Origin: a virus
DNA: 64,000 nt
IMG/VR virus record: IMGVR_UViG_3300042863_002274
Direction: 5' to 3' (one strand)
The notes under the pieces are model-generated. The model did not search any database, was not told where the DNA came from, and saw only the letters and a program-made list of their open reading frames with translations. Positions 28,029 to 48,252 of this stretch are shown piece by piece. How positions within the stretch are numbered: the stretch's first letter is position 1; each line of letters opens with the position of its first letter. The position numbers were made by a program, and so were the translations under genes.

Positions 28029-28099
28029 GAGATATATATTGACCAATCAATTAAAGCCCTTAGTGCATTTGGGGCAATTTGTGCGCTACTGTATGTTAC

Positions 28100-28373: not shown

Positions 28374-30428
28374 ATGGGCTGGAATGCGCCTCAAAACAAA
28401 GGCTTGGGCTCACAATCAAGCAAAAATCTAGGATACGGAGCCCCCATATCCATGAACCCGTCCCTCGCTGGGAAGGCGTATCGTGACTCTTGGGACATAG
28501 AGCGCGCTTACCGCGAAGGCATGTCTAAAATCACTTGGGTCAATAGGTGTATTGACGCAATCTCGGGAAACCAAGCGCGCTTGCCGATGATTTTAAGAAA
28601 AGACAATTCAAAACATGGCGAAATTATCAAGGGGCGCGAAGCAAATCGTAATCCCCTGCTGGAGATTTTAAATAATAAAGCCAATGTCGGAGAAAACTCT
28701 TTTATTTTTAGATACAGGCTTTCTGCTCAGCTCATGCTGGGTACTCGTGGAGCTTTTATAGAAAAGATACGTGGACGTGATGGTGGAATCATTGGGCTCA
28801 ACCTTCTTCCACCTCAGTCAACAGCACCAATACCAGACCCTAAAACGTTTGTTTCCGGCTACGAAGTGCAAATGCCTTATGGTGAGAAAATAATACTCAA
28901 GCCAGAAGATGTTTGCTGGGTTAGACGCCCTCACCCTATCGACCCTTACCTATCGCTTACGCCTCTTGAGGCAGCAGGTGTGGCCATAGAAATCGAAAAC
29001 CTCGCCAAGATTTACAACAGAAACTACCTTCTTAACGACGGACGTCCGGGTGGACTTTTAGTTGTTAGGGGTGAAATTGATGAAGACGATAAAGAAGAAC
29101 TGCGTAACAGATTCAGAGGAAACCTAGCAAGGGCTGGACACACTACGGTCATTGCGGCAGACGACGGAGTTGACTTTGTTGACACTTCTGCAAACCCACG
29201 TGATGCTGCCTACGTCCAGATGCGACAGATAACTAAAGAAGAAATACTTTCTGCATTTGGTGTTCCTGAGTCTGTTATTGGTAATGCCTCTGGCAGAACC
29301 TTCAGTAACGCTTCAGAAGAGATTCGTGTTTTCTGGATGGAGACAATGCTTCCCCATCTGGAGCCAATATCTAGAGCGTTAGACGAACTTGATGAAAAGT
29401 ACTATCTAGATTTTGACACGACCGAAGTTCCAATCCTCATGCTTTATAAGCAAGAGCGAGACAAGTATTTACTACAGGAATTCCAGTCTGGATTGATTAG
29501 CGCGAACGAGTACAGAACTGGCTCGTCACGCAAGGAAGTAGATGCCGACTTGGCTGACTCGCTTCTTCAGAATCCAAACCTTATTCCTATTGCGAACACG
29601 AAAAAGAAGATGGAAGAAGGCCAGGCTCAGATTCCTGGGGCTCCTGGGGCTCCTCCGGGAATGCCGGGAATGCCAGAAATGCCAGGGGTACCACCTGGAA
29701 TGCCTACTCCTGTTCCTCCAATGGCAGAAACCATTCCTTTGGACACAAATACTATGCAAGGTGCAATGGCCGAAGCAGGTATGGCGGGAGGAGAATTGGC
29801 TCAAACCACCATTCCTACCGAGGCACTTGGTGGACTTCCACAGCCAATGACTGTTGCGTCTTCTCCTAGCAATCAAATTCAAGTAAAAGAACTGATTGAC
29901 AAGAGCGAACAGTCAATCGAAAGATGGACCGAAATTCTTGCAAGAAGCGTTGAGCGCGTAGCGGAAAGACAGCAAAGAGTAGTGCTTGAAAAAGCTAGCG
30001 GCTTAAAGTCTAAAAAAGCCTTGATGCACGGAACCCTTGATGTTGACTCGGTTTTGTCAATTGAGACATGGAATAAGCAGATAGAGGAAGACATCCGTCC
30101 GGTCGTTTCTTCTATTATTAGCGATTCTTTTGAGTCGCGAGTAAATGAAGCATCTGAAAAGGGAGTAAAAGTAAAAGCTCTCCCAGTTAAGGACCTTCGC
30201 GCGATGGTTGATGCTCACGTTTCAAGAATTAAAAGAATAAATGAAGCGAATTTTTCAGAAATTAATTCACTTATGATTAAATCTTTTGAATACGCAGACG
30301 AAGAAAGACGATATTCGTTCTTTAGAGATGGGTTGGTGGAAATGTACACCGACTTCTTCGCTTATGGTCAATATCAGCTGGCCGAAAACGAGGCTCGTTC
30401 CGCTTGGAACTTTGGTCAAACTGTTTAG
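28374..30428 (+). CDS. HK97-type portal protein with C-terminal extension
   Basis: WVNRCIDAI, LSLTPLEAA, NDGRPGG and ILSAFGVP; Pro/Met/Gly-rich linker and MuF-like tail. Confidence 0.93.
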   Translation: MGWNAPQNKGLGSQSSKNLGYGAPISMNPSLAGKAYRDSWDIERAYREGMSKITWVNRCIDAISGNQARLPMILRKDNSKHGEIIKGREANRNPLLEILNNKANVGENSFIFRYRLSAQLMLGTRGAFIEKIRGRDGGIIGLNLLPPQSTAPIPDPKTFVSGYEVQMPYGEKIILKPEDVCWVRRPHPIDPYLSLTPLEAAGVAIEIENLAKIYNRNYLLNDGRPGGLLVVRGEIDEDDKEELRNRFRGNLARAGHTTVIAADDGVDFVDTSANPRDAAYVQMRQITKEEILSAFGVPESVIGNASGRTFSNASEEIRVFWMETMLPHLEPISRALDELDEKYYLDFDTTEVPILMLYKQERDKYLLQEFQSGLISANEYRTGSSRKEVDADLADSLLQNPNLIPIANTKKKMEEGQAQIPGAPGAPPGMPGMPEMPGVPPGMPTPVPPMAETIPLDTNTMQGAMAEAGMAGGELAQTTIPTEALGGLPQPMTVASSPSNQIQVKELIDKSEQSIERWTEILARSVERVAERQQRVVLEKASGLKSKKALMHGTLDVDSVLSIETWNKQIEEDIRPVVSSIISDSFESRVNEASEKGVKVKALPVKDLRAMVDAHVSRIKRINEANFSEINSLMIKSFEYADEERRYSFFRDGLVEMYTDFFAYGQYQLAENEARSAWNFGQTV

Positions 30429-30554: not shown

Positions 30555-33500
30555 ATGTTGCCTGAACTGTACGAATATAAGTCAACCACGCTCGGAACTT
30601 CCTTTGCGACCAAGGGTGGCTCCATCAACCTAGATGAAGCTCAGGGAATGGTTGAGTGCTTCGTAGCCGGAATAGGCAACAAAGACTCAGTAGGAGACAT
30701 TGTCACTACTGGTGCGTTCACAAAAAGCCTTCAGCGCCGCAAGCCTCGTGTTGTTTGGGGCCACAACTGGAATGACCCAATCGGTAAAGTTTTAGAGATT
30801 TACGAAGTACCAAATACGGACCCAAGATTGCCTTTGAAGATGAAGATGGCAGGAATCGGTGGACTTTTTGCTCGCGTTCAGTTCAACCTTAATTCCGAAA
30901 AAGGTAAAGAAGCATTCGCTATGGTTGCCTTCTTTGGTGAAGAACAAGAATGGTCAATCGGCTATAAGACGCTTCGTGCCCAGTTCGACCAGAAGTCGCA
31001 AGCAAACGTTATTTACGAACTTGAACTGTACGAAGTATCTCCTGTTCTTCACGGAGCAAACCAGCTCACTGGCACTATTTCCGTAAAGTCAGAAGAAGGT
31101 GGATATTCCGGTCCAGTTTCCTATATGGAAGAAGACGAAGAAGAAACCATAAACCGCGCAGAAATTGAAAAGCAATTGGGCTTAATGCTCGGCGCAAAAG
31201 TTTCCTTAATGGACGTAAACGGAGAAGAGCTAACCTTTGCTCGTCGTGCAGATAACGGTGAAGTTGGCCGATACAAGTGCCATTTCAGCGGAGGTCGCGG
31301 ACGATACATGTTTGGAGCACCTGAGCCAATTACGGTTGTTGCACCACGCAGACCATCAGTGCCTATGCCCGGAATGCCAATGATGCCAATTGGGTCTCCA
31401 GGAATGGTGATGAATCAGCCTCAACGCCCCACGCGTCCGCCAGCAATGTCTATGCCTGTTGCGATAAGACCAGGACAAAATGGTCCTCAGATTATCGCGC
31501 TTCCAGCAGTTGAGTACGAAGATGATGATACTCAAGAATTTGACCCAACAAACTTGGACAAAGAAGAAGCAGACCTAAGAGACGCACTTCTCAAGATAAC
31601 AAAACGTCACGGCAAGTTTAATCAAGACTCAGAAGGTGTTTGGGCCGGATACACGCCAGCTGCCGAAAACTCAATTGCTGGCATAGGCGTAAAATGTGCT
31701 AACTGCGTTTTTTATCAAGGTGGCGATAGCTGCAAGATAATTGACATGGAAGTTGAATCAGAAGGAAAGTGCCGTTTTGCCGTCATTCCTAATGGAGTTG
31801 TCAAAGGTGATTCAACAGTCAAAAAGACATACGAAATCGAAGAAGAGTTCACTCAAGAAGACTACGTTTCCGACCTTGAAGTAAAATACCCTGGAGAGTT
31901 AGCAATAGCAGCCCTGCGTGGAGCTATCGGAAGACGTAGAAAAAAGCGTCGTAAGTTCAAGTTGCTAAGCGAGTTTGGTTCGCAAAGTGATTGGCCCGAA
32001 GAGAAGGCATACCTGTTGCCTGTCGTGCCAAAGTTTGCCTTCATGGTCAAGCAGGCCCTAGACCCAATATTTGACTATCACGGCGTTGAGTCTTTTGTAG
32101 ACGTGGATGGAATTGTAATGACGTCTGGCATCAGTTATGACTTAATTGATGCGGTAGATACGGCTGTTGATAACCTAAAAAAAAAGTCTATAAATCAAAA
32201 TGACATCGAATGGAAAGCTGCTAGTTACCGACTTGGTCGTGCTATTGGTGGTCGTTTAACAAATAAACCAAATATTGGTGGAGGCCGTTCGGCCGGTCGA
32301 TTCTTTACGTCAATTGGAGCAGAAGATTTTGACCCATTTAGTGCGCGTGATGCCAACCTAAACGGAATAGTCGGTGAAGGCTTATTCCTTCGTGGTGTTG
32401 CTCTAGCCACTCCAGACCCAACACCGGATGGCCCTGGTTCAATACGCAACCCAAAACCATCCCGCGCTCAAGTACGCAAGCCTGAATCAGAGATTCTTGA
32501 CCGAGCTGGAGACGGCAAAGTCAAGCCTGTCGGCTCAAAACTAAGTAGCGGAAAACTGTTTGACGTTCCACGCATAGACGACCCTGATGTAGATTCTGCG
32601 ACAAAATACGGCTCCGCTGAGTCACAAAGAGACGAGCTTCAAGGCGTACTTGATGGTGCTTCAGACAAAGACCAAATAAAGAGACTAAAGCAAGCTATTG
32701 CTGAACTCGATAAATACATGAAGAGTGTTGAAAAAACGGTCGAAGGGGACATGGAACGCGAAAAGCGTCCAACAAAACCCAAGGCACCACAGGTTCTCAA
32801 CAGAGAAAACACTCAGCTTGCCAGAGGAATAAAGCCTCAGCGTATACCAATCGCTAGTCAATCGATGACAAGCGTAGAACGTTTCTCTTCTGGGAAACTT
32901 CCCGACAAAGCTCAGCTTCCAGAAGGCTCCTCGCAGCTTAAAGAATTCTACGAAGCGATGGCAGAAGACGTAGTGAAGTTGCTCACGGAGTTAATGAACG
33001 ACCCAAATAAAGATAAAAACTGGAAACTTCCATGGCGTCGCCCTGAGCTTTATGCAAGAAACCCTACGCGCGGTCGCGTGTATCAAGGCATGAACCAGAT
33101 GACTCTTGGCTTGGTTGCAAAATCTCGCGGGTACGAACTTCCTCGATGGGCCGGAGAAGGTCAATGGAAAAAGCTTGGTGGAAAACTTAAGCCGGGTGGA
33201 CGAAAGATGGGCGTTTCTATTCTTGTTCCACGAGAAGGACGCACTTTCACAGACATAAACGGCAAGGAAGTCGTCGAGGGGCGCTACTACGAGGTACAAA
33301 CTGTTTATAACGTAGCCGAAGTAGCTGGCCTCCCAAAGAAATTTTATGAACCTATCGATGCGGACATAAATCAAGAAACAAGACTTGAAGATTTAGAAAA
33401 CGTTATTAAGGAAATTGGTCCTGATTTCGTAGAATCATTTGGTGAGGATGCTTTTTATCGCCCATCAACAGACAAGATTCACATGCCTGCTTTTGAACAG

Positions 33501-36500
33501 TTTGTTGATGCTACGGCTTTTTATGGGACAGCAATGCACGAAACCGTTCATTGGACCTCTCACCCAACACGCCTAAACAGAACTTTAGGTAAAGAATTTG
33601 GCGATGAACAATACGCATTTGAAGAACTAATCGCTGAGATAGGTTCAGCGTTCGCGTTGGGCGCAATGGGTATTGAGCCAACAATTAGAGACAATCACCT
33701 TGTTTATGTAGCAGGATGGTTGAAGAAACTGACAGCAGACCCACTTGCCTTGCATAGGGCAATACTTTCAGCCCAACAAGCAAACGACTTCTTGCTAGAC
33801 CGTTCCTCGACAATGCGAAGACTTGCTGGCATCCCGGACGATGAAAGAAAAGGCAAAGACAATGCGTGGCTCGAAGTGCCAATGCTTGCTGGATACGAAG
33901 ACTCTCCAAGAATCAAGCCGACAACAGGCGTAAGCGGCACAATGGAAGACATGCTGGACGTGGAGTTCCCGCAGGACTTCGCACCAGAGGCTAGAAGAAC
34001 GTCTACTGCGGAACGAGAGATGAGTTCTCTTTCACGAAACCTACCAACAAAGACCAAAGATGGAATCGTCATTACTCCGTCTGGAAGACTTTCTAGCGGT
34101 AGAGGCCCAATCAAGGGCAAAAACCCTAATGCGCCAGAAATAAAGCCCATAGATGAGACAGTAGCGCTCAGGCTTGCATTTGGTTTGTCAAACGAGCCAA
34201 CCGAAGAGCAGCGAGACATCATGGCGGTTGCCATGAATCTCATTAGAAACAAAGACCCGCGCATATTGTCTATTCTTGCAGGTGCTGGAACTGGTAAAAC
34301 CACAACGCTAAAGAGCATCGCATGGGGTCTGCAGAGAGAATTCGACCTATGGCCAGAAGGCGACCTTCGGAGACCAGAACAACTCAGATACCTTTCAGAT
34401 AGGTACGGCGTTGATTTCTCTGGCATGTCCGCGGAACAGGTTAAGGAATCTGTAGAAAAACTAGCTGAAGAAAAATCAATAAACAATCTTTACTATGCGG
34501 TATTTAACAAGAAAAATCAATTCGAAGCAGAATTGGAGTTTCCAAGAAATACCGGAGTATCAACAACCGACAAGATTTGGTACTGGTCACTAAAACTAGG
34601 ACAAGGCGACAAAAAATACGGAACAGGAATGCGCAGAAAAATGCAATTCGCATTGATTTCGCCTACTGACAGAAAAGTAAATAATCCCGGAGCCAAGAAT
34701 CCTAAATTCATCAGCGAAGCTCTAACTCCTGACGAACCAGAAAGACTATTGCCACAGCAGGTACGGGAGCTCTTTGATGGAACAACCGAGTCTTTTGATG
34801 GAATTGAACCAGGATACAGAAGTCTTGGTTGGACAAGATTAGATACTGGAAGTGATTGGAAAGAATTTTTAGATTTTGCAGACGAGAAGCGCTGGAAGGG
34901 TCAAGAAACTAGACCAACTTCTGTTCCCATCTTGGACGATAAGGGAAAACCAGTAAGAGACGCTAAGGGAAAAATTCAAACAACAATGGAAGATTCGTCT
35001 GGATTTATTCTTCCAGATGCGGGCTCAACATTTGTCAGTCGAGACCAATTCGGTGACCTTTTTAAAAATGCCCTTACTAGATGGAGTCTTTCAAAAGAAG
35101 AAAAAGCGTCAGCATGGATGTTTACGCAGCCCGCAATACTAACGCAAGAGCTAGATACGCCGCGCGGTTCTGGTAAGGACATCAGCCCTGTTGACACCAT
35201 TTTAGATGAAAAAGATATTCCGGCTCAATGGGTAGAAGCTTTGCAGGAAGCAATAGACAAATTTTCCGATGGGGATAGCAGTATGCTTCCACCAAGAGAT
35301 TCTGTCGCAAAACTGTGGATGCTTACGGAGCCAGACCTTCGCTCAGACCCGGGCTTGATAACGCATACCGAGTCTCAAGAGCGCAAAAAAACTATTCCAG
35401 ATAGCTACGCGGTTGGAGACACGTATGAGCTTGAAGGCGAAACATGGATAGTCAAAACAAGAAAAAAGAGTAAAGGCAAAAACGTTCAAGTTACTCTAAC
35501 CAAGAGAATGGCGACAGAAGAAAAACCACTCAGTGCATTTTTTGTTGACGAGGCGCAAGACTCAAATGAAATTCTTGAAACAGTGCTCGACAACAATAGA
35601 GCCAATCTTCCGATAGTTGTTGTTGGAGATGATAGACAAGCCGTTTATGCGTTTCGTAACGCGAAAAACATCCTTGAATCCCTAAACGCTGACTATGAAT
35701 TAACAATTACCGAATCTTTTAGATACGGAGAAGTAATTGGGCATTTAACGAACCTTGCCTTGGGTATGCAAAACCTTTACCTTGACAAACAGGGCGTCCC
35801 TCAGTTGCCATGGAAACACGTTAAAGGCAAAGCTCAGGTTGTAGTAAACAGACTGTTCGACCCATTGCTTCCTAAAAAAGATAGAAAAGGTCTGGAGCCG
35901 GTTGACGAAATCGACGATATGACTCGTGAGTTCCTTCTTAAGGACTTGGAAGAAAAGTTTTCAACTCCAGAAAAGCGTTTGAATTTCTCTGTACATACGG
36001 TTGGAAAGAAAGCTGGAGAAAAATTAACACGCAAAGAGCAAGATGATAAATTAAGAGAACTAAGAGACTCCATTCTTGAGCCAAAAGCGGGGAAGATAGT
36101 CGACAGGGTTGAGGAAGCAAATAAAGAAGTTCCAAATCTCCCAACCATGATTCTCTGCAGAACCAACGCAGAAATCATTAACGAAACTCTCAAGTTCATT
36201 AAACTTGTCGTCGATAGTCCAAATGCGAAAAAAGATGATAACGGGTTGCCAATTCTGCCAGAAGTAGTCATTCCTTTAAGCAAGCACGAAGAACTTCTAA
36301 AGTTTACGAGACATCTTGAGTACATCTTTATGCCTCAAGCAGAAAAAAGCAAGCGCGGTCTCCCCGAAGTATCGGGATGGATTGGACCCATCTTCGACCA
36401 GGGAGGACTGAAGAGAGTAATAAATCAGGCTTCAGGACAGCAGGCCAGAAGTGCATACAAACTAATAATGCAGGCCCCTCCTGGCGGCGGCGTGCCTCTT

Positions 36501-39305
36501 GGGATATCAGGAATGTTAACCCTTCTTCAGGGCAGACAGAAAATAGAAATAGATGCGAAAACCGGTAAAGAAAAAATTACTGTTATTCCTGCGTCAATTC
36601 TTCCAGAAAGAAAAAGCGTAACGCTTGAGAATTTCAGAATAGAACCAGAAGAAATTGACTCAATATCTAAATTTTCTAAAGCCGCATCCGCCCCTCAAGC
36701 TAAAGAATCTCAACTACAAAGAATTGTAATAATTCCTCCACCCAGCACCTCAACCGATGGTCGAGGTGCTGTATATGCTCAACTTGAAATTATAGGCGGA
36801 GACGAAAAGAAACCCGGAAAACCATCCGGACGCATTATCGTTACCGGTGACGGTGTGGATACCGGTAGACCACAAACACTCCCCGACGGCTCCGAAGCAA
36901 GAAACATACCTCCCAACCAAAGAGTAGGTAACGGTCGCTATAGAAGAGACCTCGAAAAGGTCATCTTGAATCTTGGTTTATCCGACAAGGTAAAGATAAT
37001 GCAAGACGCAGAGAGGGGCGGCCCGCGAGCCGGAGGAAAGCGCAGAGCGTTTGACGGATTTGTAATTGAGGGCGAAAACCTTGAAGAATCAACCAAAATA
37101 TTAAACGACATTGGCCAAGCAATGAGAGATTCGGCTCAAGGCCCTGGTGGAGACGTTGAGATTACGACCATTCAGCTTTCAAAAGGCCGAGAGTCAGATT
37201 TTGTTGCAGTAGCAGAAGACTTGGGAGACCCTAGCGATTCATTGGCTGCAAATATTCCACAAGGACAAGCAGGACTTGCCTTCATGGAGGAAACAAACCT
37301 CATCCATGTGGCGTTTTCTCGTGCGAAAAAAATGATTGACCCAGGTTGGAAGGGGTTCAAGTATTATCTCCACGACGAATCTACAAAAGACGTCAGGGCA
37401 GCAATCAAGAAAGCAGTACAGGACGGCCATATACCGCCAGAACTAGACAAGGGGGCCTTTGGAGACGAAGGCGGTATTCCTCTTCCTAAGTTCTATGCAG
37501 CATTAAACAAGATGAGTCCTGACGATATAGATGAAAATAATCTTCCAGACCGAGCAGCGCTTGATGAAAAAGAAATCGAAATTGACCCCGACCTCGTCTT
37601 TGACGTGGATAAGGATATTAACGATGTCGTTCGTGACCCAAGTGATTACGAATCAGAAGTAGACATAGATGACTTGATTGATGCGGACGAAATGGGAGAC
37701 GATTCTGATGGTCAGATGCGCCTCTCTAGCGGAACCTCAAACTTCCCTGGTCCTGGCCGCCGTCTGTCTAGAAGAATGGGCGTAAGAAGCAGTAGTCGCG
37801 TCACCCCTGGTGCCATAAGTGCTCAAGACCTTGCTGGAATAAGACTCTTTGGAGACCCCAATTCACCCAACAACCGCCGCAAGACGGATTATGCAATGCA
37901 GACGTGGGCTGGATTCAGGGAAAGAGGTATCGAAATAAATGCCGAAGGAAGAGAACAAACAAAAAACGCCATGAAAAAAGTCGGCGAAGCCATGAAGGCT
38001 CGTCAGAACAGGGTTCGGGTTGGGCGAGTTGGAGACAACTTGCGCAATGATAATCCTTCGGCGGAAACATGGATGCTCTCAGTAGACGCTCTCGCAGAGC
38101 AACTTCGCATTCCAGAAGATTTTAATGGCCAGGGCGAATCCCTTCGTTCTCGTTCTGCGACACGACAAGAGATAGCAAGTCTTTTGGGTTTGAGCGAAAT
38201 GGACAAGCAGAAGATTCAAAATTCCGATGCTGGAGTAAACCACGACGCAGTTCGTCTTTTGGTTGCTGAACTTGGAAATCAACCAGAGCTGGCAGGCTGG
38301 CGCTATTTTGCTCCGGTTTCAAGAGACGAAATCAGAAAGATAATTCCATCCCCAACAGGAGACACGGAAAGTATCACCCCCCAAGTGGACATGGCAATGG
38401 AGAATGCCGGTAGGGCAAACATGCGTGACCGTTTCATTATCGAAACGTTCGGCAAAGACGCCTTCCCTCATTGGTTCGACCAAGATGAAGAAGAAGCCAT
38501 TAGTCCAGCCGAGTACTCTCAATTGGGTGAGGTCGACGAGAGGGCGAAGTTCCGTGCAACAGGACGATTTGCCCCCGATGACCCATTTGAGGGCGACTCT
38601 GAAGCCGAAATTGACCTTTATGGACAAAGCTTTGACGAACTTGAGAATCCTCCATCCTTGTCTGCCGATGATGAAATAATCAAACTTGATAAAACAGATA
38701 AAAAAGACTTTGAGATTGAGCCTTTGCTTAAATATCTAGGAATAGATAAGAAAGAGTGGAGAACCAGACTTAGTGAAATTCTTTCTGAAAAGTTTGGAAC
38801 CGATAGTACTGGAGTCAACCCTGAGTGGGAAAAGCAGGGAATCCCAACCGCAACTATTGCTCACATGATTCGTAAAGGAGTCCTGCCAAATGCGGCAGAC
38901 GTCTGGAAGGACGGCAAGGCAGGGAAACTGTTTGACGAAGAGATGGAAAGACCCAAGTATGCGGTTTATGAAGCCCTTAACGAATTCATAGACAGAAGCT
39001 TCCCGAACAGCAGACTCAACAGCAAAGAAAACCGTAACAAAATAGTCGGCGCGACAGATATGGGTACCGCACTTCGCGATGCTGCTGCTGCAAAAGGTTC
39101 AGCCTGGAGTGCAAAGAAAGGCAACGAGCCAAGGTTCGCTGTTTCTGAAATGCAAACAATGGTTGACAGGTTTAACGAGATATTCGGAACGGACCATACT
39201 CTTGAAGACATTTTCAGCGCCGAGCAATTAAGAAACGCTAAAACCAGAATTGAAAACGGCGAAACGCTGTCAGGTAAAAAAAGAAAGCCAAAACAGGCTG
39301 ATTAA
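30555..39305 (+). CDS. Giant polyvalent protein: HK97-type prohead protease, Cys4 domain, ArdC (ssDNA-binding plus zincin), SF1 UvrD-like helicase
   Basis: Protease DSVGD..GAF, WGHNW..PIG, WSIGY, LYEVSPV; ArdC PW..NPTRGRVYQGMNQ and HETVHWTSH..YAFEELIAE; helicase GAGTGKTT (34281), DEAQD (35547), VGDDRQAVYAFR, SFRYG, SKGRE, VAFSRAK. Confidence 0.9.
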   Translation: MLPELYEYKSTTLGTSFATKGGSINLDEAQGMVECFVAGIGNKDSVGDIVTTGAFTKSLQRRKPRVVWGHNWNDPIGKVLEIYEVPNTDPRLPLKMKMAGIGGLFARVQFNLNSEKGKEAFAMVAFFGEEQEWSIGYKTLRAQFDQKSQANVIYELELYEVSPVLHGANQLTGTISVKSEEGGYSGPVSYMEEDEEETINRAEIEKQLGLMLGAKVSLMDVNGEELTFARRADNGEVGRYKCHFSGGRGRYMFGAPEPITVVAPRRPSVPMPGMPMMPIGSPGMVMNQPQRPTRPPAMSMPVAIRPGQNGPQIIALPAVEYEDDDTQEFDPTNLDKEEADLRDALLKITKRHGKFNQDSEGVWAGYTPAAENSIAGIGVKCANCVFYQGGDSCKIIDMEVESEGKCRFAVIPNGVVKGDSTVKKTYEIEEEFTQEDYVSDLEVKYPGELAIAALRGAIGRRRKKRRKFKLLSEFGSQSDWPEEKAYLLPVVPKFAFMVKQALDPIFDYHGVESFVDVDGIVMTSGISYDLIDAVDTAVDNLKKKSINQNDIEWKAASYRLGRAIGGRLTNKPNIGGGRSAGRFFTSIGAEDFDPFSARDANLNGIVGEGLFLRGVALATPDPTPDGPGSIRNPKPSRAQVRKPESEILDRAGDGKVKPVGSKLSSGKLFDVPRIDDPDVDSATKYGSAESQRDELQGVLDGASDKDQIKRLKQAIAELDKYMKSVEKTVEGDMEREKRPTKPKAPQVLNRENTQLARGIKPQRIPIASQSMTSVERFSSGKLPDKAQLPEGSSQLKEFYEAMAEDVVKLLTELMNDPNKDKNWKLPWRRPELYARNPTRGRVYQGMNQMTLGLVAKSRGYELPRWAGEGQWKKLGGKLKPGGRKMGVSILVPREGRTFTDINGKEVVEGRYYEVQTVYNVAEVAGLPKKFYEPIDADINQETRLEDLENVIKEIGPDFVESFGEDAFYRPSTDKIHMPAFEQFVDATAFYGTAMHETVHWTSHPTRLNRTLGKEFGDEQYAFEELIAEIGSAFALGAMGIEPTIRDNHLVYVAGWLKKLTADPLALHRAILSAQQANDFLLDRSSTMRRLAGIPDDERKGKDNAWLEVPMLAGYEDSPRIKPTTGVSGTMEDMLDVEFPQDFAPEARRTSTAEREMSSLSRNLPTKTKDGIVITPSGRLSSGRGPIKGKNPNAPEIKPIDETVALRLAFGLSNEPTEEQRDIMAVAMNLIRNKDPRILSILAGAGTGKTTTLKSIAWGLQREFDLWPEGDLRRPEQLRYLSDRYGVDFSGMSAEQVKESVEKLAEEKSINNLYYAVFNKKNQFEAELEFPRNTGVSTTDKIWYWSLKLGQGDKKYGTGMRRKMQFALISPTDRKVNNPGAKNPKFISEALTPDEPERLLPQQVRELFDGTTESFDGIEPGYRSLGWTRLDTGSDWKEFLDFADEKRWKGQETRPTSVPILDDKGKPVRDAKGKIQTTMEDSSGFILPDAGSTFVSRDQFGDLFKNALTRWSLSKEEKASAWMFTQPAILTQELDTPRGSGKDISPVDTILDEKDIPAQWVEALQEAIDKFSDGDSSMLPPRDSVAKLWMLTEPDLRSDPGLITHTESQERKKTIPDSYAVGDTYELEGETWIVKTRKKSKGKNVQVTLTKRMATEEKPLSAFFVDEAQDSNEILETVLDNNRANLPIVVVGDDRQAVYAFRNAKNILESLNADYELTITESFRYGEVIGHLTNLALGMQNLYLDKQGVPQLPWKHVKGKAQVVVNRLFDPLLPKKDRKGLEPVDEIDDMTREFLLKDLEEKFSTPEKRLNFSVHTVGKKAGEKLTRKEQDDKLRELRDSILEPKAGKIVDRVEEANKEVPNLPTMILCRTNAEIINETLKFIKLVVDSPNAKKDDNGLPILPEVVIPLSKHEELLKFTRHLEYIFMPQAEKSKRGLPEVSGWIGPIFDQGGLKRVINQASGQQARSAYKLIMQAPPGGGVPLGISGMLTLLQGRQKIEIDAKTGKEKITVIPASILPERKSVTLENFRIEPEEIDSISKFSKAASAPQAKESQLQRIVIIPPPSTSTDGRGAVYAQLEIIGGDEKKPGKPSGRIIVTGDGVDTGRPQTLPDGSEARNIPPNQRVGNGRYRRDLEKVILNLGLSDKVKIMQDAERGGPRAGGKRRAFDGFVIEGENLEESTKILNDIGQAMRDSAQGPGGDVEITTIQLSKGRESDFVAVAEDLGDPSDSLAANIPQGQAGLAFMEETNLIHVAFSRAKKMIDPGWKGFKYYLHDESTKDVRAAIKKAVQDGHIPPELDKGAFGDEGGIPLPKFYAALNKMSPDDIDENNLPDRAALDEKEIEIDPDLVFDVDKDINDVVRDPSDYESEVDIDDLIDADEMGDDSDGQMRLSSGTSNFPGPGRRLSRRMGVRSSSRVTPGAISAQDLAGIRLFGDPNSPNNRRKTDYAMQTWAGFRERGIEINAEGREQTKNAMKKVGEAMKARQNRVRVGRVGDNLRNDNPSAETWMLSVDALAEQLRIPEDFNGQGESLRSRSATRQEIASLLGLSEMDKQKIQNSDAGVNHDAVRLLVAELGNQPELAGWRYFAPVSRDEIRKIIPSPTGDTESITPQVDMAMENAGRANMRDRFIIETFGKDAFPHWFDQDEEEAISPAEYSQLGEVDERAKFRATGRFAPDDPFEGDSEAEIDLYGQSFDELENPPSLSADDEIIKLDKTDKKDFEIEPLLKYLGIDKKEWRTRLSEILSEKFGTDSTGVNPEWEKQGIPTATIAHMIRKGVLPNAADVWKDGKAGKLFDEEMERPKYAVYEALNEFIDRSFPNSRLNSKENRNKIVGATDMGTALRDAAAAKGSAWSAKKGNEPRFAVSEMQTMVDRFNEIFGTDHTLEDIFSAEQLRNAKTRIENGETLSGKKRKPKQAD

Positions 39306-41082: not shown

Positions 41083-44000
41083 ATGGTGGATGCCCCTATA
41101 AATAGGGAAAGAATCGTAGTTTCGGCGCGGCTTATCGTGCCTTTGTCGTGCTGCGGTGGATTCAACGAAAAAGCACTTCGCTTTAGGCAGTCAATAAATT
41201 CTTCTGTATCTACTGGAAGACTAGAGCCAGAACTTGCATTAAAAGCAGTCGGTGACGTTTTTAGTTTAAGAAAAAAAACAGCCGAAGATACTGATAATAA
41301 AAAAAGAGAATTCACTGGAGACACTCGTCCCGGTGTTGCCTCAAATGAGTTCGGCTATCGCTGGGACAAATCAGCCAAGTGGGAACCAGGCTCTCGTCTT
41401 GTCATAAGCCCGTCGTATACGTCGCGCATGGGAATGGGAACCATGCCGAACGTGGGTTGGATTCCTAGAGACGAAAATCAACCAAAGTCTTTTCAGGAAA
41501 TGATTTCGAGAATTCAATCAGAACCTCAGATTCAGTTACGAAAATTTAAAGTAAATCCAAAAACTGACGACATAATCCCTGAGTCAGAAAAGATAATTGA
41601 CCCTTTTGCTATTTCTTCCGGCATGACCATGGAAGAAAGACGAAATGCTCAAAGAAAATATCAAATCGATAATCCTGAAGAAAAAAGACTTCCAGGCGCG
41701 AGTCTTGAATCACGAGTTCCGGGAGGCTCTCTTTTAAGTAGAGCAGCAGCTGTTTTTGGTATCCTGAGAGACGAGAACAACAAGTTTCGATGCCCTCCAG
41801 GAACTCCGGCAGCAAATCAGTTCACTGACGCAACTGGTTCCAACTGCTTCGGTTTTAGTGCTTCAAAGTTTTCACGTTTCGCAGCAAGGGAAGCAGCCAG
41901 ACTTACGGCAGAAGGCGAATACGAGGGGTTGAGAACAAACGCTAATGCTTTTTTTGGTTACCTATACGGCGGCAGTCAACAAGCAAGAGGCGTTGCAAGT
42001 CCAGAGTTTATTTCCCGATGCGCATACTGGGAAGACCTTTATGGAGACAAATTAAAGCCGCCTTCATGGCGCGACACCCCTGTCACAGAAAATCTTCGTC
42101 TGTTCAAAAACGGAGCAATACGTGCACAGGACGATATTGCGAGACAAAAAGCCTCAGCAGTACGTATCTATGATGCTTTAGGAATCGACCCCAGTGACCC
42201 AAATGCTCATTTCCAGGCTGTCGAAAAATTACAGAAGATGCATGTTGATAGTGACGGTGCTGCTGGATGGGACTTAAAGATTTTAAACACTTCTTCTGGT
42301 GGAGACGCATCTCGTCTAACTGATTTAGAAGTCAGAGAGTTTACTGAAGCAAGACTTAAATCAGTTTCAGGGTGGAATCGTTTATCAAACGAAGAACAAA
42401 AAAGACTTATTGATTCTGACATTAGAAGGTATCAAGAGACAGAACGAGCAATGTTCGAAACACTCTTGGACCAATTCATGCAAAATCCATCAACAGCGAG
42501 AGTGCTTGGAAGAGTTGAATATAACTTTTTATCTGATGACGAAGCTGGAACAGGAATGTACAGAGATGCCCCCTCTATTGTTCCACGATTAAAACCAGAC
42601 GGAACACCAGTTCTTGACAAAGCCGGCAACCCCGTAATGGGCAAAGTTCCCGGAGAACTACGTAGCGTTATTCATATAAACATGAAAGAAATTCTACAAA
42701 ATCAAGAAACAATGCTTCCAAACATGGGACCAGATGAAAGATTGGCAATTTCTGCGATTGGCGCACGAAGCGAAGCCGAAGGTCGTTTAGCGGTTGCAGA
42801 TTTTCTTGTCAACGTAGACCATACCGCAAGAGGAATGGCTGGACTAATTGATGGTGTCTACTCTTTCTCTAGTCACATCATGCTTCACGAGCACGCACAT
42901 AGTATTCAGCTTCAAGTATTCATGGCGAAAATTCAAGAACAGATAGACAGCAAAGGTTTCATATCTGTTCCCATAGTAGACAGAAACGGAATCGTTAAAG
43001 GGACAAGAAACGTAGACTCAATCTACAGACTGTCCGGCGATGACGTTATGGCGATAATGACCGACGTAGCGGACGACATAAACCTGGATTCCTTAAAAGA
43101 CGCCATGGAGCGCATCAAATCTGTGGCACCTCTTGCTGGAGCGTATCCAAGAGATGCATACAAAGAAGGCTCAGAGGTTTGGGCTCTTGAAGTAGCAGCA
43201 GAACTACACGCCCTTCGCGCGAGAGGCATAATATACGGAGACGACATTGACGCAGCTTTAGCCTTTATGGACGACATAGGCGATAGTAGAGCGTCGATTG
43301 ACAGAGCTCTTGGTGACGAGACCGCAGCGCTTGTTGACATGGACGACGTGTTCACTATTCGTCCAGACTCCGTCGTTCCGGACGGCATGCCGGAAGAATC
43401 CATAACAGAAGCGCTAGGGGACAGGGACGAACGCATTGCTTCTGCTCTTCGTGAGGAAATAAAACAATTCAAGACGGGATTCAAAGACCTTCCTGAAGAT
43501 GAAATGATTTCAGAAGCTGCAATTATTGAATCTCAGAGAGATGCTTCAAATAACACGTTAAAGAAACTTAATGATTTCGAGATTGACCCGTCCCTGCCTG
43601 AAGACGAGAAAGAGTCAATAAGGGGATATCTAGAGAATCTTAAGAAGCAAACGCAAATGGAATTGGACTTCCACGACACTAGATACAACGAAGCATCAAA
43701 AGCGTGGAGAAAAAAGTACGGCATCGGAGCTAGAGGAGAAAAAGACAGATTTAAAGAATCCGTTAAGGCAGTCCGTGAAAGAGAAGGACTGTTTGATGAT
43801 GTTGAAATTGAAGAACTTGCAAAAATAGCAGCTCTCGACGACCTTCGTAAGTCTGTAGAAAAAATGCCAGAGAAGAAGATAATTCGACGCCTGGCTGATG
43901 ACGAAATATACCTAAGCACTCTTGACCCATCTTCCGACGAGGCTAAAAACCTAATTGAAAAGATTGACGTCATAAAAGAGCAGTATGTACAAAACATGCG

Positions 44001-47000
44001 TGACGCAGGAGACAAGTCGACGACTGCCAAATTAAAGAAAAACCTAGACCAGAGTGTTAAGGATTTAATTTCTCCTCCAGCAAAAAAGAACGTGTCCTTA
44101 AAGAGCAAGCAAGAAGCAAAAGACCACGCAACAAAAGAACGTCGCCGGGTTCGCGGAACTGCAGAGCAGAAAAAAGCAGTCAAAGAACTCGGAGACATTG
44201 CATCTTCGGACGTAGGACAACTGCTTGACCCTGCGGCTCAGACCAGGGCCGGAAGAGCAATAAACAAAAGAAACGCCAGAATAAAGAGATTGGGACTTAC
44301 GGTTGATGAAAAATCATCTGAAGAAGGCGACGTTGTCCAGCAAGTTCAAAATTTGCTAATTCCAGTCATGGAAGTAATCGACGGAACGTCTATTGCTGAC
44401 CCGTTCGAGATAGAAACAGTTATTGATTTCGATTCAGGAGTTCTACGAGGAAAAATTGAAGGCAAAGAAATTGAAATGCCTCAATTTGTTTCCGGCAAGG
44501 TTCTGACGACGAAAACAAAAAAGCTGGACATGCCAGAAAAAGGAATTCGCGACAAAGAAACTGGGAAAACCGCTCGCCGCGTAGTTGTACAGGTTCGCGA
44601 GGGAGACAGAGGCCTCTTTCCTTCAGCAGGAGAAGACGACCAACGCTTTGTTGCTCCACCTGGACGCCTTCGCATTACGGGGATAGACCCCGACGGAACA
44701 GTAAGAGCAGAGTTGTCTTATCAAAAAGACTCTGTTGAGGTCATTGACTCCATGGCATACAGTTTGGAGACAAACAAAACTGATGCAATTTGGGCGCAGA
44801 GCCACGGTAAAAAAATCAAAGCAGTAGCAGACAAGTACGTTAACTCGCGCCGTGAATCAGGTAAGGAATCTACGGGTTCAAGAAGTGATTACGATTCCGT
44901 CTCAGAAACCTCAAGCAAAACAGTTGTAGACGAGGTTGTGGACGCTGGTGGTTCTTTCGGAGAAGGTTTTGACGAACTACCCCCTCACTTGTCGTCTGAT
45001 GACTCAAGTTCCCGCTTGTCTTCTGGAAAGAAAGACGTACTGGGCGCTCCCGCTACGCGCAAGCAAAGAACAGAATTAAGAAATAAGTCAATGTCTTCTC
45101 AGGTTAGGGAAGTTAAATCCATTCTTGGAGGAGGACAGGGGGACTCGGCTGACCCACTGTCAAGGGGTGACATCCACCCAGACGTTGCTCGTTTAATCGC
45201 CGATACTCCAGAAGAAGACCTGTTAGCAAGAGCCGAGAATACTGCATACAGAATGCATGAAGGTTTCGATAGAAGAGTACGTGTTCGCGCAACAGATGAC
45301 GACATTGAGAGACTTTCTTCCACGGGCTCCATAAGGTCCCCGTTTGCTTCTCCAGACGATGAAGCAAAAAGAACATCACGCAGAGCGCAAAGATACTCAG
45401 GAATGGGTCCAGACGAGCGCTCTTCAAGACTGTCTTCCGGCCGAACTATTGATTCTTCAGAGAATTTAGCTGAAAGAAAAAGGCAAGAAAAAGAAGTTGC
45501 AGTTAAGGCTTTTGAAATATTTGACAAAGTCCTTAACGCCGACGGAAAAAACTTAGACGACATGTCCGAAGCAGAACTCTCTGCGTCTTTCGGTGGGAAA
45601 GTAAAGAAATCTAAGAGAAAATCAGTAAGTGCTACAAACGACTCGCTTTATGAAGTGGACGACGTGCCGACAGCTATTGCGTTAATGATGTTGGGGCATC
45701 ACGTTGCTGTTAAAGACCAGGACCTAAGATTGACCGAGCAATCACAAAAAGCATTTGAAGAAGAAGTTAAAAATGCTGCAAAGAAACATATTGACGCCCA
45801 AAACCCTCACCCTAAATGGGTTCAGTATCAAGAACAGTATAAAAAAGATTCTCCAGATTTAGACTATGGAGACCCTGCAGTTGTCAAGGAAATGGAAAAG
45901 AACTACGTAGACAGCTATCAAGCAGACCTTTGCGCTTTGTATAGTCCGGCACAAAACTTGCTGTGCTCGGGGCATATCGGTATTGATAGAGAAAAAATGC
46001 CTCAGACAAACGGAAGGTCTGCAGGCTACGATACTGTCGCGGTAAGAGCGCTTAAAGCCGGAGAAGCCGCCGGAAAGTTTGAACCTGCAAAGACTATAAA
46101 AAGAAACGCTGCAGTAGACGCAGAGTTCGCAGAAGAACTTAATGCAGCAGTAATTAAAGCCAACGCTGGTCTAGTCAAAAAGGGTAAACCAGAATTAACA
46201 GACGAAGAGATTTCAAAAAAACTTTATGAGATAGTTTCAGAAAAACATTCATTAAGGAATCAATTTGGGGACAAAACACAAGAACAACACAAGGGTGATT
46301 CTTACGACAAAATGTCTGATGCTTCGAAAAATTGGCTATATGAAAACACTGACTGGAACGACACTGAAGTAAACTTGGAGACACCATTCATAGAATGGCT
46401 AAATGGAGTTATTGAGCCAGAAAACGGCGAACCTTCGGTAATCCTTAAAGAGGTAAATCCTGGTGATTATGCTCCATCACAGCAGCAGCTAGTTGCATCA
46501 AAAGTAGACGGTACCGCTAGGCAAATACAAGAAAAAGCCATAGAAGTTGCCGAGGGCATAAGAGCTGATAATCCTGGAATATCGGACGAAGACTTTAGAA
46601 CAAAATACCTAGAAGAAATGAAAAAGCAATGGTTTATGCAGCCCATCCTTACTGCAAGTGATGGGTTTATTGTTGACGGTCACCATAGGTGGGCAGGAAT
46701 AAACGTAGGAAACAGTTCACTTTCGGAAGAATTACGACTCCCTTTGAATGTTAATGAAATACAAACGGACATAATTGAAGCTTTGACCCTAGGAAAAATC
46801 TTCCAAGACGCTTGGGGTATTAAAGAAGCGCGCCTTGGAGCTGAAAACAAGTGGAAAGAGGGAGAAATAACCGACATTAGTAAAAACGAAATATCTCAAC
46901 TCATGGACGGTTTGACCAAAAACGTGGGCACCCTTGTGGACGAAAAGTACGCAGAAGGAAATTTTGTTCAGCTTGGCTCGATTGGTCTTTCAAACAATCC

Positions 47001-48252
47001 AGACTACGCAGCACGAGCCAAGGAAAGACAGACTAGTGCTCTGACAAGAAGACCCGGCCCAGCAGCAAGAGCTCGTGAACTAGAGCTTGATGCAGCCATT
47101 CGTGATGCAGGGAGACAACGTTCGCCAGATGCTCCCGCGGAAAGAGAATCTGTTGGCAGATTGGCAAAAATGCGTAAAGGAAAGAGACTTAGTAGTGGAA
47201 AGACTATCGATGCTCCCGCTTCAGGCAAGACGGTAGGAATGTCTCCTAAAAACTACGCAAGCGAATATTATTCAAGAATAGGTCTACCAAGCTCTCTTGA
47301 CCCAGACATGATGCCAGTAAGTGGATATCTCGTTCATAAATCTCACATAGATGCAAAACGTGCTCAGATTACAAAAGGCGGAATGCCTGGAAATCTCAGA
47401 CCAGATGGTGTGTTTGAAGTAGGGGACGAAGATTTAGTTGGAGACGGCCTAACGGCCTTGGGTGATATGGAAATAGTTTTGCGCCCTGGAGTGTCAAACC
47501 GGGTCGCTTACGGACGAGGCAATGCTCTCACTTCGGCTCACAGGCCCGTAATGCTTAACTCACGTAACAGGGACGACGTAGCTGACGCAATCCTTAATGC
47601 CGACGGAGTAAACGCTGAAGAAACAAAACGAGAAGCCCTTTTACACATGCTCTCTTCTTCTTTGAATAACGATTTTTCAAACGCAAACGCATCAAGAAGC
47701 TCTAGTGGAAAAATGCCATCTTCGTTCGACAAGAAACTACCCGAAGGCTCCACCAGGGAACCTTTTGAGGCTCAGATTTTGGGCGGATTTGACGTTGCTG
47801 ATATCGAACAAATAAACGTTCCGTTGAGCAAGATTGAGGCCGCCTCGGCGAAAGAAGACATTTCCGACGTTGTTGATGCCGTATCGATTGCTGACAAGTT
47901 AAGAAAAGCCGGATTTTCTCAAGAAGAAATTGAATACTTTTACTCTATGGGCGGGGGACAATCGTTAGATACAGCAAGCATGTCTATGCTGCGTAAATAC
48001 AGAGCGTCACAAAAGATGAAAGACGACTTTGCCAAGCGTGGTCTGAATAATGTCAAGTTTGCTCACCCGAATGGTTTCAATATTGAAGACGCTCGTTCTC
48101 ACTCTAAGAGCGCCAAAGCAGGCCAGTCTGTTGAGTCAACCCTCAAGGACTCTATAGCTGAGGAAATTATTGCAGCAGCGAAAGACTTGCTCAAAGAAAT
48201 GAAAAAAACAAACAAGCCAAAAGTTACATCTATATTCGGAGGAAAACTATGA
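41083..48252 (+). CDS. Giant polyvalent protein: zincin, ART-like, ParB/Srx and DUF3626-like domains
   Basis: HEHAH (42886)..EVAAE; FVSG..VVVQVREG..PPGRLRI; PSQ..PILTASDGFIVDGHHRW (46675); PVSGYL..EAQILGG..DIEQI. Confidence 0.75.
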   Translation: MVDAPINRERIVVSARLIVPLSCCGGFNEKALRFRQSINSSVSTGRLEPELALKAVGDVFSLRKKTAEDTDNKKREFTGDTRPGVASNEFGYRWDKSAKWEPGSRLVISPSYTSRMGMGTMPNVGWIPRDENQPKSFQEMISRIQSEPQIQLRKFKVNPKTDDIIPESEKIIDPFAISSGMTMEERRNAQRKYQIDNPEEKRLPGASLESRVPGGSLLSRAAAVFGILRDENNKFRCPPGTPAANQFTDATGSNCFGFSASKFSRFAAREAARLTAEGEYEGLRTNANAFFGYLYGGSQQARGVASPEFISRCAYWEDLYGDKLKPPSWRDTPVTENLRLFKNGAIRAQDDIARQKASAVRIYDALGIDPSDPNAHFQAVEKLQKMHVDSDGAAGWDLKILNTSSGGDASRLTDLEVREFTEARLKSVSGWNRLSNEEQKRLIDSDIRRYQETERAMFETLLDQFMQNPSTARVLGRVEYNFLSDDEAGTGMYRDAPSIVPRLKPDGTPVLDKAGNPVMGKVPGELRSVIHINMKEILQNQETMLPNMGPDERLAISAIGARSEAEGRLAVADFLVNVDHTARGMAGLIDGVYSFSSHIMLHEHAHSIQLQVFMAKIQEQIDSKGFISVPIVDRNGIVKGTRNVDSIYRLSGDDVMAIMTDVADDINLDSLKDAMERIKSVAPLAGAYPRDAYKEGSEVWALEVAAELHALRARGIIYGDDIDAALAFMDDIGDSRASIDRALGDETAALVDMDDVFTIRPDSVVPDGMPEESITEALGDRDERIASALREEIKQFKTGFKDLPEDEMISEAAIIESQRDASNNTLKKLNDFEIDPSLPEDEKESIRGYLENLKKQTQMELDFHDTRYNEASKAWRKKYGIGARGEKDRFKESVKAVREREGLFDDVEIEELAKIAALDDLRKSVEKMPEKKIIRRLADDEIYLSTLDPSSDEAKNLIEKIDVIKEQYVQNMRDAGDKSTTAKLKKNLDQSVKDLISPPAKKNVSLKSKQEAKDHATKERRRVRGTAEQKKAVKELGDIASSDVGQLLDPAAQTRAGRAINKRNARIKRLGLTVDEKSSEEGDVVQQVQNLLIPVMEVIDGTSIADPFEIETVIDFDSGVLRGKIEGKEIEMPQFVSGKVLTTKTKKLDMPEKGIRDKETGKTARRVVVQVREGDRGLFPSAGEDDQRFVAPPGRLRITGIDPDGTVRAELSYQKDSVEVIDSMAYSLETNKTDAIWAQSHGKKIKAVADKYVNSRRESGKESTGSRSDYDSVSETSSKTVVDEVVDAGGSFGEGFDELPPHLSSDDSSSRLSSGKKDVLGAPATRKQRTELRNKSMSSQVREVKSILGGGQGDSADPLSRGDIHPDVARLIADTPEEDLLARAENTAYRMHEGFDRRVRVRATDDDIERLSSTGSIRSPFASPDDEAKRTSRRAQRYSGMGPDERSSRLSSGRTIDSSENLAERKRQEKEVAVKAFEIFDKVLNADGKNLDDMSEAELSASFGGKVKKSKRKSVSATNDSLYEVDDVPTAIALMMLGHHVAVKDQDLRLTEQSQKAFEEEVKNAAKKHIDAQNPHPKWVQYQEQYKKDSPDLDYGDPAVVKEMEKNYVDSYQADLCALYSPAQNLLCSGHIGIDREKMPQTNGRSAGYDTVAVRALKAGEAAGKFEPAKTIKRNAAVDAEFAEELNAAVIKANAGLVKKGKPELTDEEISKKLYEIVSEKHSLRNQFGDKTQEQHKGDSYDKMSDASKNWLYENTDWNDTEVNLETPFIEWLNGVIEPENGEPSVILKEVNPGDYAPSQQQLVASKVDGTARQIQEKAIEVAEGIRADNPGISDEDFRTKYLEEMKKQWFMQPILTASDGFIVDGHHRWAGINVGNSSLSEELRLPLNVNEIQTDIIEALTLGKIFQDAWGIKEARLGAENKWKEGEITDISKNEISQLMDGLTKNVGTLVDEKYAEGNFVQLGSIGLSNNPDYAARAKERQTSALTRRPGPAARARELELDAAIRDAGRQRSPDAPAERESVGRLAKMRKGKRLSSGKTIDAPASGKTVGMSPKNYASEYYSRIGLPSSLDPDMMPVSGYLVHKSHIDAKRAQITKGGMPGNLRPDGVFEVGDEDLVGDGLTALGDMEIVLRPGVSNRVAYGRGNALTSAHRPVMLNSRNRDDVADAILNADGVNAEETKREALLHMLSSSLNNDFSNANASRSSSGKMPSSFDKKLPEGSTREPFEAQILGGFDVADIEQINVPLSKIEAASAKEDISDVVDAVSIADKLRKAGFSQEEIEYFYSMGGGQSLDTASMSMLRKYRASQKMKDDFAKRGLNNVKFAHPNGFNIEDARSHSKSAKAGQSVESTLKDSIAEEIIAAAKDLLKEMKKTNKPKVTSIFGGKL

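Follow-up and report, generated by a model that had tools for sequence, protein, structure and literature searches.

A predicted polyvalent protein led by the prohead protease, with a conserved poly-A run at its cargo joint, in an uncultured myovirus

This study analyzed a 64,000-nucleotide (nt) stretch of viral DNA (the window; IMG/VR virus record IMGVR_UViG_3300042863_002274), in which a 2916-amino-acid (aa) open reading frame (ORF) sits between the portal and major capsid genes. The encoded protein begins with a protease of the HK97 type, followed by an ArdC-like module, a UvrD-like superfamily 1 (SF1) helicase, and a conserved C-terminal module, and the gene carries a run of nine A at the joint between the N-terminal module (N-module) and the cargo. 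The features of the ORF and of the two head genes are listed below; aa numbers refer to the 2916-aa ORF, "long form" denotes its full-length product, and structural confidence is given as the predicted local distance difference test score (pLDDT) of AlphaFold2 (AF2) models.

28374..30428, + strand: portal gene, directly upstream of the 2916-aa ORF (Pfam Phage_portal, E 7e-51)
30555..39305, + strand: 2916-aa ORF (324 kDa), predicted protease-led polyvalent protein (single intact open frame and full-length relatives)
30648..31079, + strand: HK97-type prohead serine protease (Peptidase_S78), aa 32-175 (Pfam and PHROG matches, gp4 alignment)
31146..31337, + strand: small alpha+beta subdomain, aa 198-261 (AF2 local pLDDT ~70-79)
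31320..31544, + strand: Pro/Met-rich low-complexity linker, aa 256-330 (read from the sequence; predicted disordered)
31695..31772, + strand: four-Cys cluster CxxC-x8-C-x12-C (C381, C384, C393, C406), probable metal site with a pattern like that of high-potential iron-sulfur proteins (HiPIP)
31812..32195, + strand: helical hairpin and alpha/beta subdomain closing the N-module, aa 420-547 (AF2 local pLDDT 59-86)
32177..32185, + strand: A9 homopolymer, CTA AAA AAA AAG, Leu541-Lys544, candidate programmed slippage site
32190..32537, + strand: conserved, predicted-disordered segment of the long form only, aa 546-661 (alignment consensus; pLDDT <50)
32538..32552, + strand: KLSSG, motif 1, aa 662-666, after the N-module
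32880..32894, + strand: RFSSG, motif 2, aa 776-780, just before ArdC
32943..33824, + strand: complete ArdC-like module, aa 797-1090 (ArdC-N single-stranded DNA (ssDNA)-binding domain and zincin MPTase domain, HETVH at 33537-33551)
34086..34100, + strand: RLSSG, motif 3, aa 1178-1182, at the ArdC/helicase border
34194..37334, + strand: UvrD-like SF1 helicase with large inserts, ~aa 1214-2260 (Pfam, PHROG, motifs)
37719..37733, + strand: RLSSG, motif 4, aa 2389-2393, before the C-terminal module
37812..39269, + strand: conserved family-specific C-terminal module, ~aa 2420-2905 (AF2 pLDDT 85.6)
52936..54303, + strand: HK97-fold major capsid protein with an N-terminal extension of ~178 aa (Pfam Phage_capsid, E 1e-40)

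Pfam assigned aa 32-175 to Peptidase_S78 (PF04586; E 4.7e-11, 43.5 bits against a cut-off of 21), and the PHROG matches of the ORF comprised head maturation protease (phrog_80, phrog_3244), anti-restriction protein (phrog_7245), and DNA helicase (phrog_1967). The pair His70 (30762-30764) and Ser134 (30954-30956) aligned with His65 and Ser114 of HK97 gp4, which we take to be the catalytic residues of that enzyme; both were invariant among 83 relatives, as were nearly all residues of the S78 domain. The ORF gave the only S78 match in the 83.9-kb record to which the window belongs and which CheckV rated ~53% complete. Its position in the head module, after the portal gene, marks the S78 domain as the predicted prohead protease of the phage. 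The initial annotation, made from the sequence without database searches, had placed an HK97-type protease at this N-terminus, and the Pfam, PHROG, and His/Ser evidence agrees with it; the Pro/Met-rich linker it described lies at aa 256-330, and its coordinates for the four-Cys cluster, HETVH, Walker A, and Walker B were all exact on rechecking.

The ArdC part exceeded the cut-offs of both Pfam domains (ArdcN, PF08401, aa 797-888, E 6.9e-14; MPTase-PolyVal, PF18818, aa 946-1069, E 8.4e-39). It aligned over nearly its whole length with R388 ArdC (PDB 6SNA, residues 27-294, also 6I89; E 5.6e-37), sharing the zincin motif (HETVH here, HEATH in R388) and EELIAEIG. With an ArdC-N domain followed by a zincin that has HExxH and the downstream Glu, the module is a predicted anti-restriction protein, and the alignments bear out a full ArdC where one with HETVH had been proposed.

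The helicase was supported by Pfam matches to UvrD-helicase (PF00580, aa 1659-1705, 42.2 bits against 23) and AAA_19 (29.1 against 25.1), both in the region of aa 1650-1705, and by a P-loop match at aa 1228-1260; UvrD_C_2 at aa 2202-2259 was sub-threshold (16.5 bits against a cut-off of 27.4), and relatives reached PF13361. We located Walker A (GAGTGKT, 34281-34301), Walker B (FFVDEAQD, 35538-35561), motif VI (37167-37193), and the further motifs GDDRQ, TIQLSKGRE, and FSRAK. The distance of 413 aa between Walker A and Walker B is consistent with large inserts. The search against the PDB gave a weak match to FBH1. Pfam, phrog_1967, and the located motifs thus agree with the UvrD-like helicase with inserts and intact Walker motifs that had been read from the sequence.

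The C-terminal module stood at the extreme C-terminus in 88 of 88 relatives. Foldseek against the PDB returned nothing for it at E ≤0.001, and BFVD had no match; the ESM Atlas gave TM values of at most 0.26 by shape and no usable match by features, and a PDB profile search gave E values of 0.005 or worse. A profile of the module searched against 1.84 billion representatives retrieved 44 proteins; those that had also come up among the relatives were giant proteins of the protease-led family, and the new ones were 74-3352 aa long. The last ~500 aa had no family match; the initial annotation had left the last ~530 aa unassigned, and the helix-turn-helix (HTH)-like repeats that it suggested there were not substantiated (best Z 4.7 in VIA, not above noise). 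The last ~100 aa weakly resembled XRE-type HTH bundles in VIA, and the Sigma70_r4 matches of relatives fell in variable cargo outside the C-terminal module.

Judged by conservation among the relatives, the constant N-terminal unit is a ~545-aa N-module, comprising the S78 protease and ~365 further residues, and not the 180-aa protease alone. Its order is protease, small alpha/beta domain, invariant four-Cys cluster, and helical domain; in the AF2 model the last helix ends at ~aa 547, with disorder from ~aa 546. Past the protease, Foldseek and VIA returned generic matches only (KA1-like, cystatin/NTF2-like, helical hairpins; Z ≤6.8; overall pLDDT 52), and the PDB profile search returned none. 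The small subdomain at aa 198-261 had cystatin/NTF2-like matches only (Z ~6, not above noise), and aa 420-547 gave no significant fold match. C381, C384, C393, and C406 were all invariant among the 83 relatives. The cluster (KCANCVFYQ...CKI...GKCRFAVIP) resembles the 4Fe-4S ligand pattern of HiPIP; it had no Pfam match at E ≤0.1, and the AF2 model is of low confidence here. A predicted metal or Fe-S site within a prohead-protease module would be unusual. The segment of ~115 aa after the A-run was strongly conserved, with the motifs GYRLGRAIGSRLIDRPNIGG, DPxxxRDxNLDG, and PDPTPxGPGSIxNPKPS. This predicted-disordered segment (aa 546-661) may be a docking or tether peptide.

Relatives were sought among 5.8 billion proteins. 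The results revealed more than 100 clusters that combine S78, ArdC, and MPTase, usually with UvrD, in one protein of 2600-4760 aa. Full-length relatives were 36-91% identical and occurred on contigs of up to 170 kb from ENA, JGI, Logan, and NCBI, and 302 stretches in IMG/VR encoded a relative of aa 1-800. Among cultured phages (tblastn, 50,697 records), only the ArdC cassette was matched, at 9% coverage, and no fusion was found. The genome collection yielded only four contigs of metagenome-assembled genomes, from unrelated phyla, so no host was assigned.

Coverage was counted over 115 relatives of the 2916-aa ORF: aa 1-650 were covered in 85-100 of them, aa 2450-2900 in ~65-88, ArdC in ~100, and the helicase in ~57. 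The cassettes gained or lost included a second helicase, sigma-70 region 4, KTSC, and pentapeptide repeats. These comparisons indicate a protein built as a constant N-module, variable enzyme cassettes, and a constant C-terminal module. An arrangement of constant ends and variable middle is characteristic of trafficking domains whose cargo can be exchanged, which supports the earlier proposal that the protease serves as a loading handle. That proposal was upheld in part: the constant N-terminal part, the variable cargo, and the head-module context speak for it, but the unit is the ~545-aa N-module, and delivery in the virion is a prediction.

The linkers between the modules share a short tag, [RK][LF]SSG (RLSSG for short). 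In the 83.9-kb genome it occurred 18 times, in four giant proteins only, and in the 2916-aa ORF it stood at the module borders; the chance expectation per genome is ~0.1-0.2 by a rough estimate from typical residue frequencies, not a computed value. The 114 homologues contained 429 copies against 1.45 in shuffled sequences. The other three giant proteins were as follows.

41083..48252, + strand: 2389-aa neighbor with HExxH at aa 602 (HEHAH) and three RLSSG (aa 1311, 1449, 2035); no Pfam or PHROG match
8918-13651, - strand: 1577-aa protein downstream of the tail sheath gene, probably the tape measure, with two RLSSG (aa 35, 561)
L091 1419-10448, equal to G000:C1 68068-77097, just past the window end: 3009-aa protein with nine RLSSG

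Motif density tracked the N-module lineage and not the presence of an MPTase in cis: the median LSSG count per 1000 aa was 2.7 in relatives that pair S78 with the N-module and lack an MPTase, and 0 in those that pair S78 with an MPTase and lack the N-module. In a motif scan, neither RLSSG nor a looser LSSG-like site was found in the capsid protein or the portal. The HExxH of the 2389-aa protein was kept in its 2405-aa homologue in locus L083 (aa 578), and the HExxH region matched no peptidase family; this protein is a candidate both for a second cargo polyprotein and for a zinc peptidase. The most economical reading of [RK][LF]SSG is a proteolytic cutting site, for which the S78 protease, the MPTase, and the HExxH protein are candidate readers.

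The A9 run at 32177-32185 was the sole homopolymer of at least nine in the 83.9-kb genome. Of 81 related loci, 78 held A9-A11 at the joint (32 distinct sequences were listed, with protein identities as low as ~47%), the run length among relatives spanned A9-A13, and a run was present in 19 of 21 lineages delimited at 70% identity; two sublineages had it shifted 35-100 aa downstream, still between the N-module and the first LSSG. Lys at the run was encoded by AAA in 101 of 105 codons, against 24-82% AAA among Lys codons elsewhere in the same genes. The Leu before the run was CTA or TTA in 27 of 28 cases (2/20 and 3/17 at flanking Leu positions), and flanking Ala, Asp, and Thr used all their codons. 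In every distinct sequence read, relocated sites included, both shifted frames reached a stop within 1-5 codons after the run. Together, these patterns indicate that the A-run is kept by selection at the nucleotide level.

Some loci carried the run out of frame. The apparent split relative L083, with a 543-aa protease ORF and a cargo ORF, proved to be one frame broken at A10 and needs one A more, and L089 (A13) and L090 (A11) need one A less. L041 has A9, and its sister loci have A10. The ORFs P0133-P0135, P0137, P0139, and P0140 stop 1-6 aa past KKK. The slipped product is predicted to be 545-549 aa long (~60 kDa), beside the 2916-aa, 324-kDa fusion; because the last AF2 helix ends at ~aa 547 and disorder follows, this short product would stop at a domain boundary. 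The conserved A-run, which the initial annotation had not noted, probably implies both a bare N-module and an N-module with cargo.

Sliding of the ribosome on poly-A is an alternative route to the outcome that RNA polymerase slippage would have. No stable RNA structure was found downstream of the run (z -0.6), which lends no support to a classical stimulated -1 ribosomal frameshift. Runs of nine A or T slip efficiently in bacterial transcription, and in Thermus dnaX RNA polymerase slips on nine such bases, both non-zero frames meet a stop close by, and the products form at ~1:1 (PMC5009743). The A-run has the sequence hallmarks of a dnaX-type site, with at least nine A/T, synonymous conservation, and stops in both frames, and it would likewise give short and long products with a common N-terminus. 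As in retroviral Gag/Gag-Pol, the shared part would serve as the assembly unit, and the enzymes would lie in the extension; unlike in Gag-Pol, the long form usually occupies the zero frame, an arrangement shared with dnaX and reversed in some lineages. Our literature searches found no slippage site in a protease gene. The distant S78 relatives P0146 and P0149 end a few residues after KKK (…GKKKAFRD-stop and …TKKKNKYK-stop). Poly-A junction sites may be more widespread among protease-led fusions.

In its domains and gene context, the 2916-aa ORF corresponds to the polyvalent proteins of Iyer et al. (2017, PMC5512222): a giant multi-domain polypeptide with ArdC-N, MPTase-PolyVal, and a helicase, encoded beside portal and capsid genes in a portal-terminase phage, of a class whose members are predicted to be packaged in the head and to enter the host along with the DNA. 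We therefore class it, on sequence criteria, as a polyvalent protein, and the same context suggests delivery to the host. It differs from the described polyvalent proteins in that a constant 545-aa module starts with S78 at its N-terminus, ArdC and a UvrD-like helicase form the cargo (UvrD-like cargo was rare in that survey), the linkers are RLSSG-tagged, a slippery A-run lies at the joint, and the C-terminal module, among the matches whose make-up was read, was found only in these giant proteins.

Phage P1 offers a close functional parallel in DarB, a helicase-containing protein of ~250 kDa that is packed in the head at ~40 copies per virion and protects incoming DNA from type I restriction; the P1 head genes likewise adjoin portal and protease genes (PMC9024508). 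DarB, however, relies on a 30-aa N-terminal signal and the helpers Hdf, DarA, DdrA, DdrB, and Ulx, is not fused to a protease, and carries a methyltransferase, not ArdC (PMC9024508). The internal proteins (IP) and Alt of T4 and the ejection proteins of SPN3US and other phiKZ-like phages are loaded into proheads, trimmed by protease at a short motif, retained in the head, and ejected, but they come from separate genes with cleavable N-terminal propeptides and are cut by a T4 gp21-type protease at a motif ending in Glu (PMC7411985), whereas in the present ORF the cargo has the protease as its own N-terminus. R388 ArdC likewise has an ssDNA-binding N-domain and an HExxH metalloprotease domain (PDB 6SNA/6I89); it is a free 297-aa protein acting in the recipient (PMC7213743), whereas the present ArdC is a cassette of a virion-module polyprotein.

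HK97 gp4 and the present protease belong to one Pfam family, have the same catalytic His and Ser, and are encoded after the portal gene; in both phages the capsid protein begins with a delta-like extension, and no dedicated scaffold gene was recognized. HK97 gp4, however, is 225 aa long with a short C-terminal tail, whereas here ~365 conserved residues and 2370 aa of cargo follow the protease fold. Duda et al. reportedly found in 2013 that the C-terminal tail of gp4 targets the protease into proheads. HK97-type proteases are co-assembled with the capsid protein in procapsids.

We infer virion carriage because an anti-restriction enzyme made from a late operon protects incoming DNA only if it is virion-borne; the argument for packaging draws on HK97-type proteases, on the known head cargo of T4, SPN3US, and P1, and on the polyvalent-protein concept. 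In our preferred reading, to which we assign a probability of about 0.55 and in which we infer packaging, cutting, and slippage, the protease anchors the 2916-aa protein as polyvalent cargo that is packaged into the head and leaves it together with the DNA. Either RNA polymerase slipping on the A-run or the ribosome sliding along poly-A would yield a mix of the ~60-kDa N-module and the 324-kDa fusion, both of which would enter the procapsid through the shared N-module; the slippage ratio would admit many copies of the protease with few copies of the bulky cargo. A phage protease would then cut the linkers at RLSSG, in the head or after ejection, and the freed ArdC, helicase, and C-terminal module would exit with the DNA and counter host restriction before phage gene expression. 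The more specific proposal, which we advance tentatively and put a little short of even odds, is a Gag/Gag-Pol- or dnaX-like recoding in which the conserved poly-A site sets the ratio of free protease to tethered cargo, so that swappable anti-defense enzymes would be dosed into the capsid, freed at RLSSG, and injected.

Several observations weigh against this protease-anchored cargo. The assemblin-like peptidase of polyvalent proteins was always C-terminal in the survey of Iyer et al. (2017, PMC5512222), so an N-terminal protease layout has no described precedent; our literature searches likewise found no description of a protease-led cargo architecture. Production in the recipient is enough for R388 ArdC to act, and its transfer is not needed (PMC7213743). 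A 324-kDa protein would need unfolding to exit through the tail. The capsid protein and the portal have no RLSSG, so S78, if it is the reader of RLSSG, must cut the capsid protein elsewhere; the two copies in the probable tape measure, a protein located outside the head, mean that the tag is not confined to head proteins. Finally, the joint lacks an A-run in ~9 of 83 relatives.

The distribution of the tag bears on a variant in which the cargo is packaged but RLSSG is cut, perhaps after ejection, by a zinc metallopeptidase, namely the ArdC MPTase or the HExxH protein of 2389 aa. Absence of the motif from the capsid protein and its presence in the tape measure favor this variant, MPTase autoprocessing of polyvalent proteins was proposed by Iyer et al. 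(2017, PMC5512222), and the HExxH of the 2389-aa neighbor is conserved in the L083 homologue. By the LSSG medians, however, the motif neither requires an MPTase in cis nor follows from one, the HExxH region of the neighbor is without a peptidase family match, and the HK97 gp5 site, with a basic P1 residue followed by small residues, is not unlike [RK]-LSSG; on balance, this variant appears doubtful. HK97 gp4 cuts gp5 after Lys103, where the gp5 sequence continues with SLGS.

If, instead, the polyprotein stays in the cytoplasm, the fusion would be no more than a means of expression. It would be cut in the infected cell by the protease or the zincin, only the short product would enter proheads, and the freed ArdC and helicase would act on DNA during replication or packaging, for instance to shield progeny DNA from restriction or to counter superinfecting rivals. 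The slipped ~60-kDa product alone would be a complete prohead protease, RLSSG in the 3009-aa protein outside the head module and in the probable tape measure implies that cutting need not be intracapsid, and the activity of R388 ArdC made in the target cell (PMC7213743) fits such a role. We nevertheless consider this unlikely, given that the gene lies within the late head operon, in the portal-capsid interval, and that the cargo is kept in frame with the part expected to enter proheads in more than 100 lineages. ArdC-N and MPTase in phage virion modules are, moreover, a hallmark of injected polyvalent proteins (PMC5512222), and an anti-restriction protein made late would be useless for the incoming genome.

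It might also be that the A-run is unprogrammed, a tolerated or hypermutable tract reflecting replication slippage, population heterogeneity, or assembly error, and that only the full-length protein matters. Homopolymers readily gain and lose bases in DNA, A9 in place of A10 is all that separates L041 from its sister loci, and nine of 83 relatives manage without the run. We regard this as quite improbable: the run is kept against codon preference in lineages of ~50% protein identity, stops follow within 1-5 codons in both other frames of every variant, including the relocated sites, and no other run of at least nine exists in the genome. A tract of this length slips in bacterial transcription anyway (PMC5009743), and a costly one would be expected to disappear through AAG changes unless it is useful. 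Finally, an assembly chimera of unrelated genes, named in the initial annotation as a possible refutation, can be dismissed: the source is a metagenomic contig and nothing else was found in favor, whereas full-length relatives occur in many independent assemblies, with the same architecture at 85-97% identity in independent samples (L002-L007, P0002-P0004) and at 36-65% identity on 130-170 kb contigs from ENA, JGI, and Logan.

How phages choose and dose injected proteins is known for few models, namely the targeting peptides of T4, the Dar system of P1, and the ejection proteins of phiKZ and SPN3US. A third solution is suggested by the protease-anchored family: the maturation protease itself would hold the cargo, and a slippery homopolymer would set the dose. 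If this is true, a phage head gene carries a recoding signal that annotators can check, ORFs split at poly-A should not be read as errors, and the presence of anti-restriction enzymes in late operons is accounted for. The constant N-module and tag-delimited cassettes would then offer a natural modular scaffold for studying or engineering phage protein delivery in laboratory hosts.

The tail sheath gene (14997-16451, - strand) identifies the source phage as a myovirus, uncultured and about 160 kb in size. Ahead of the portal gene lay the following gene.

26715-28046, - strand: large terminase

On the + strand, the order is portal, 2916-aa ORF, a 560-aa protein of unknown function, the 2389-aa protein of unknown function, five small ORFs, and the capsid gene; a promoter and terminator scan from the portal through the 2916-aa ORF to the downstream genes gave no convincing candidate. 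The search with the capsid protein returned 2723 matches at E ≤1e-20, and the best 120 of these were 78-97% identical and lay on 145-232 kb contigs; such a very large, tightly conserved capsid family suggests that the phage group is abundant in metagenomes. Pentapeptide-repeat regions are of a kind able to mimic DNA. The 3009-aa protein contains a long region of this type together with a GNAT acetyltransferase and an RNase_T-type exonuclease, and by these domains it is a second polyvalent protein, located outside the head module after the primase-helicase gene.

The portal protein has a C-terminal extension of ~300 aa past the Pfam portal domain, which starts with a Pro/Met/Gly-rich stretch (PGAPGAPPGMPGMPEMPGVPPGMP; 29580-29800, + strand, aa ~400-470 of the portal) much like the Pro/Met-rich linker at aa 256-330 of the protease ORF. 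Just upstream of the capsid gene, a 223-aa ORF (52103-52774, + strand) contains two DUF3721 repeats (E 8e-13).

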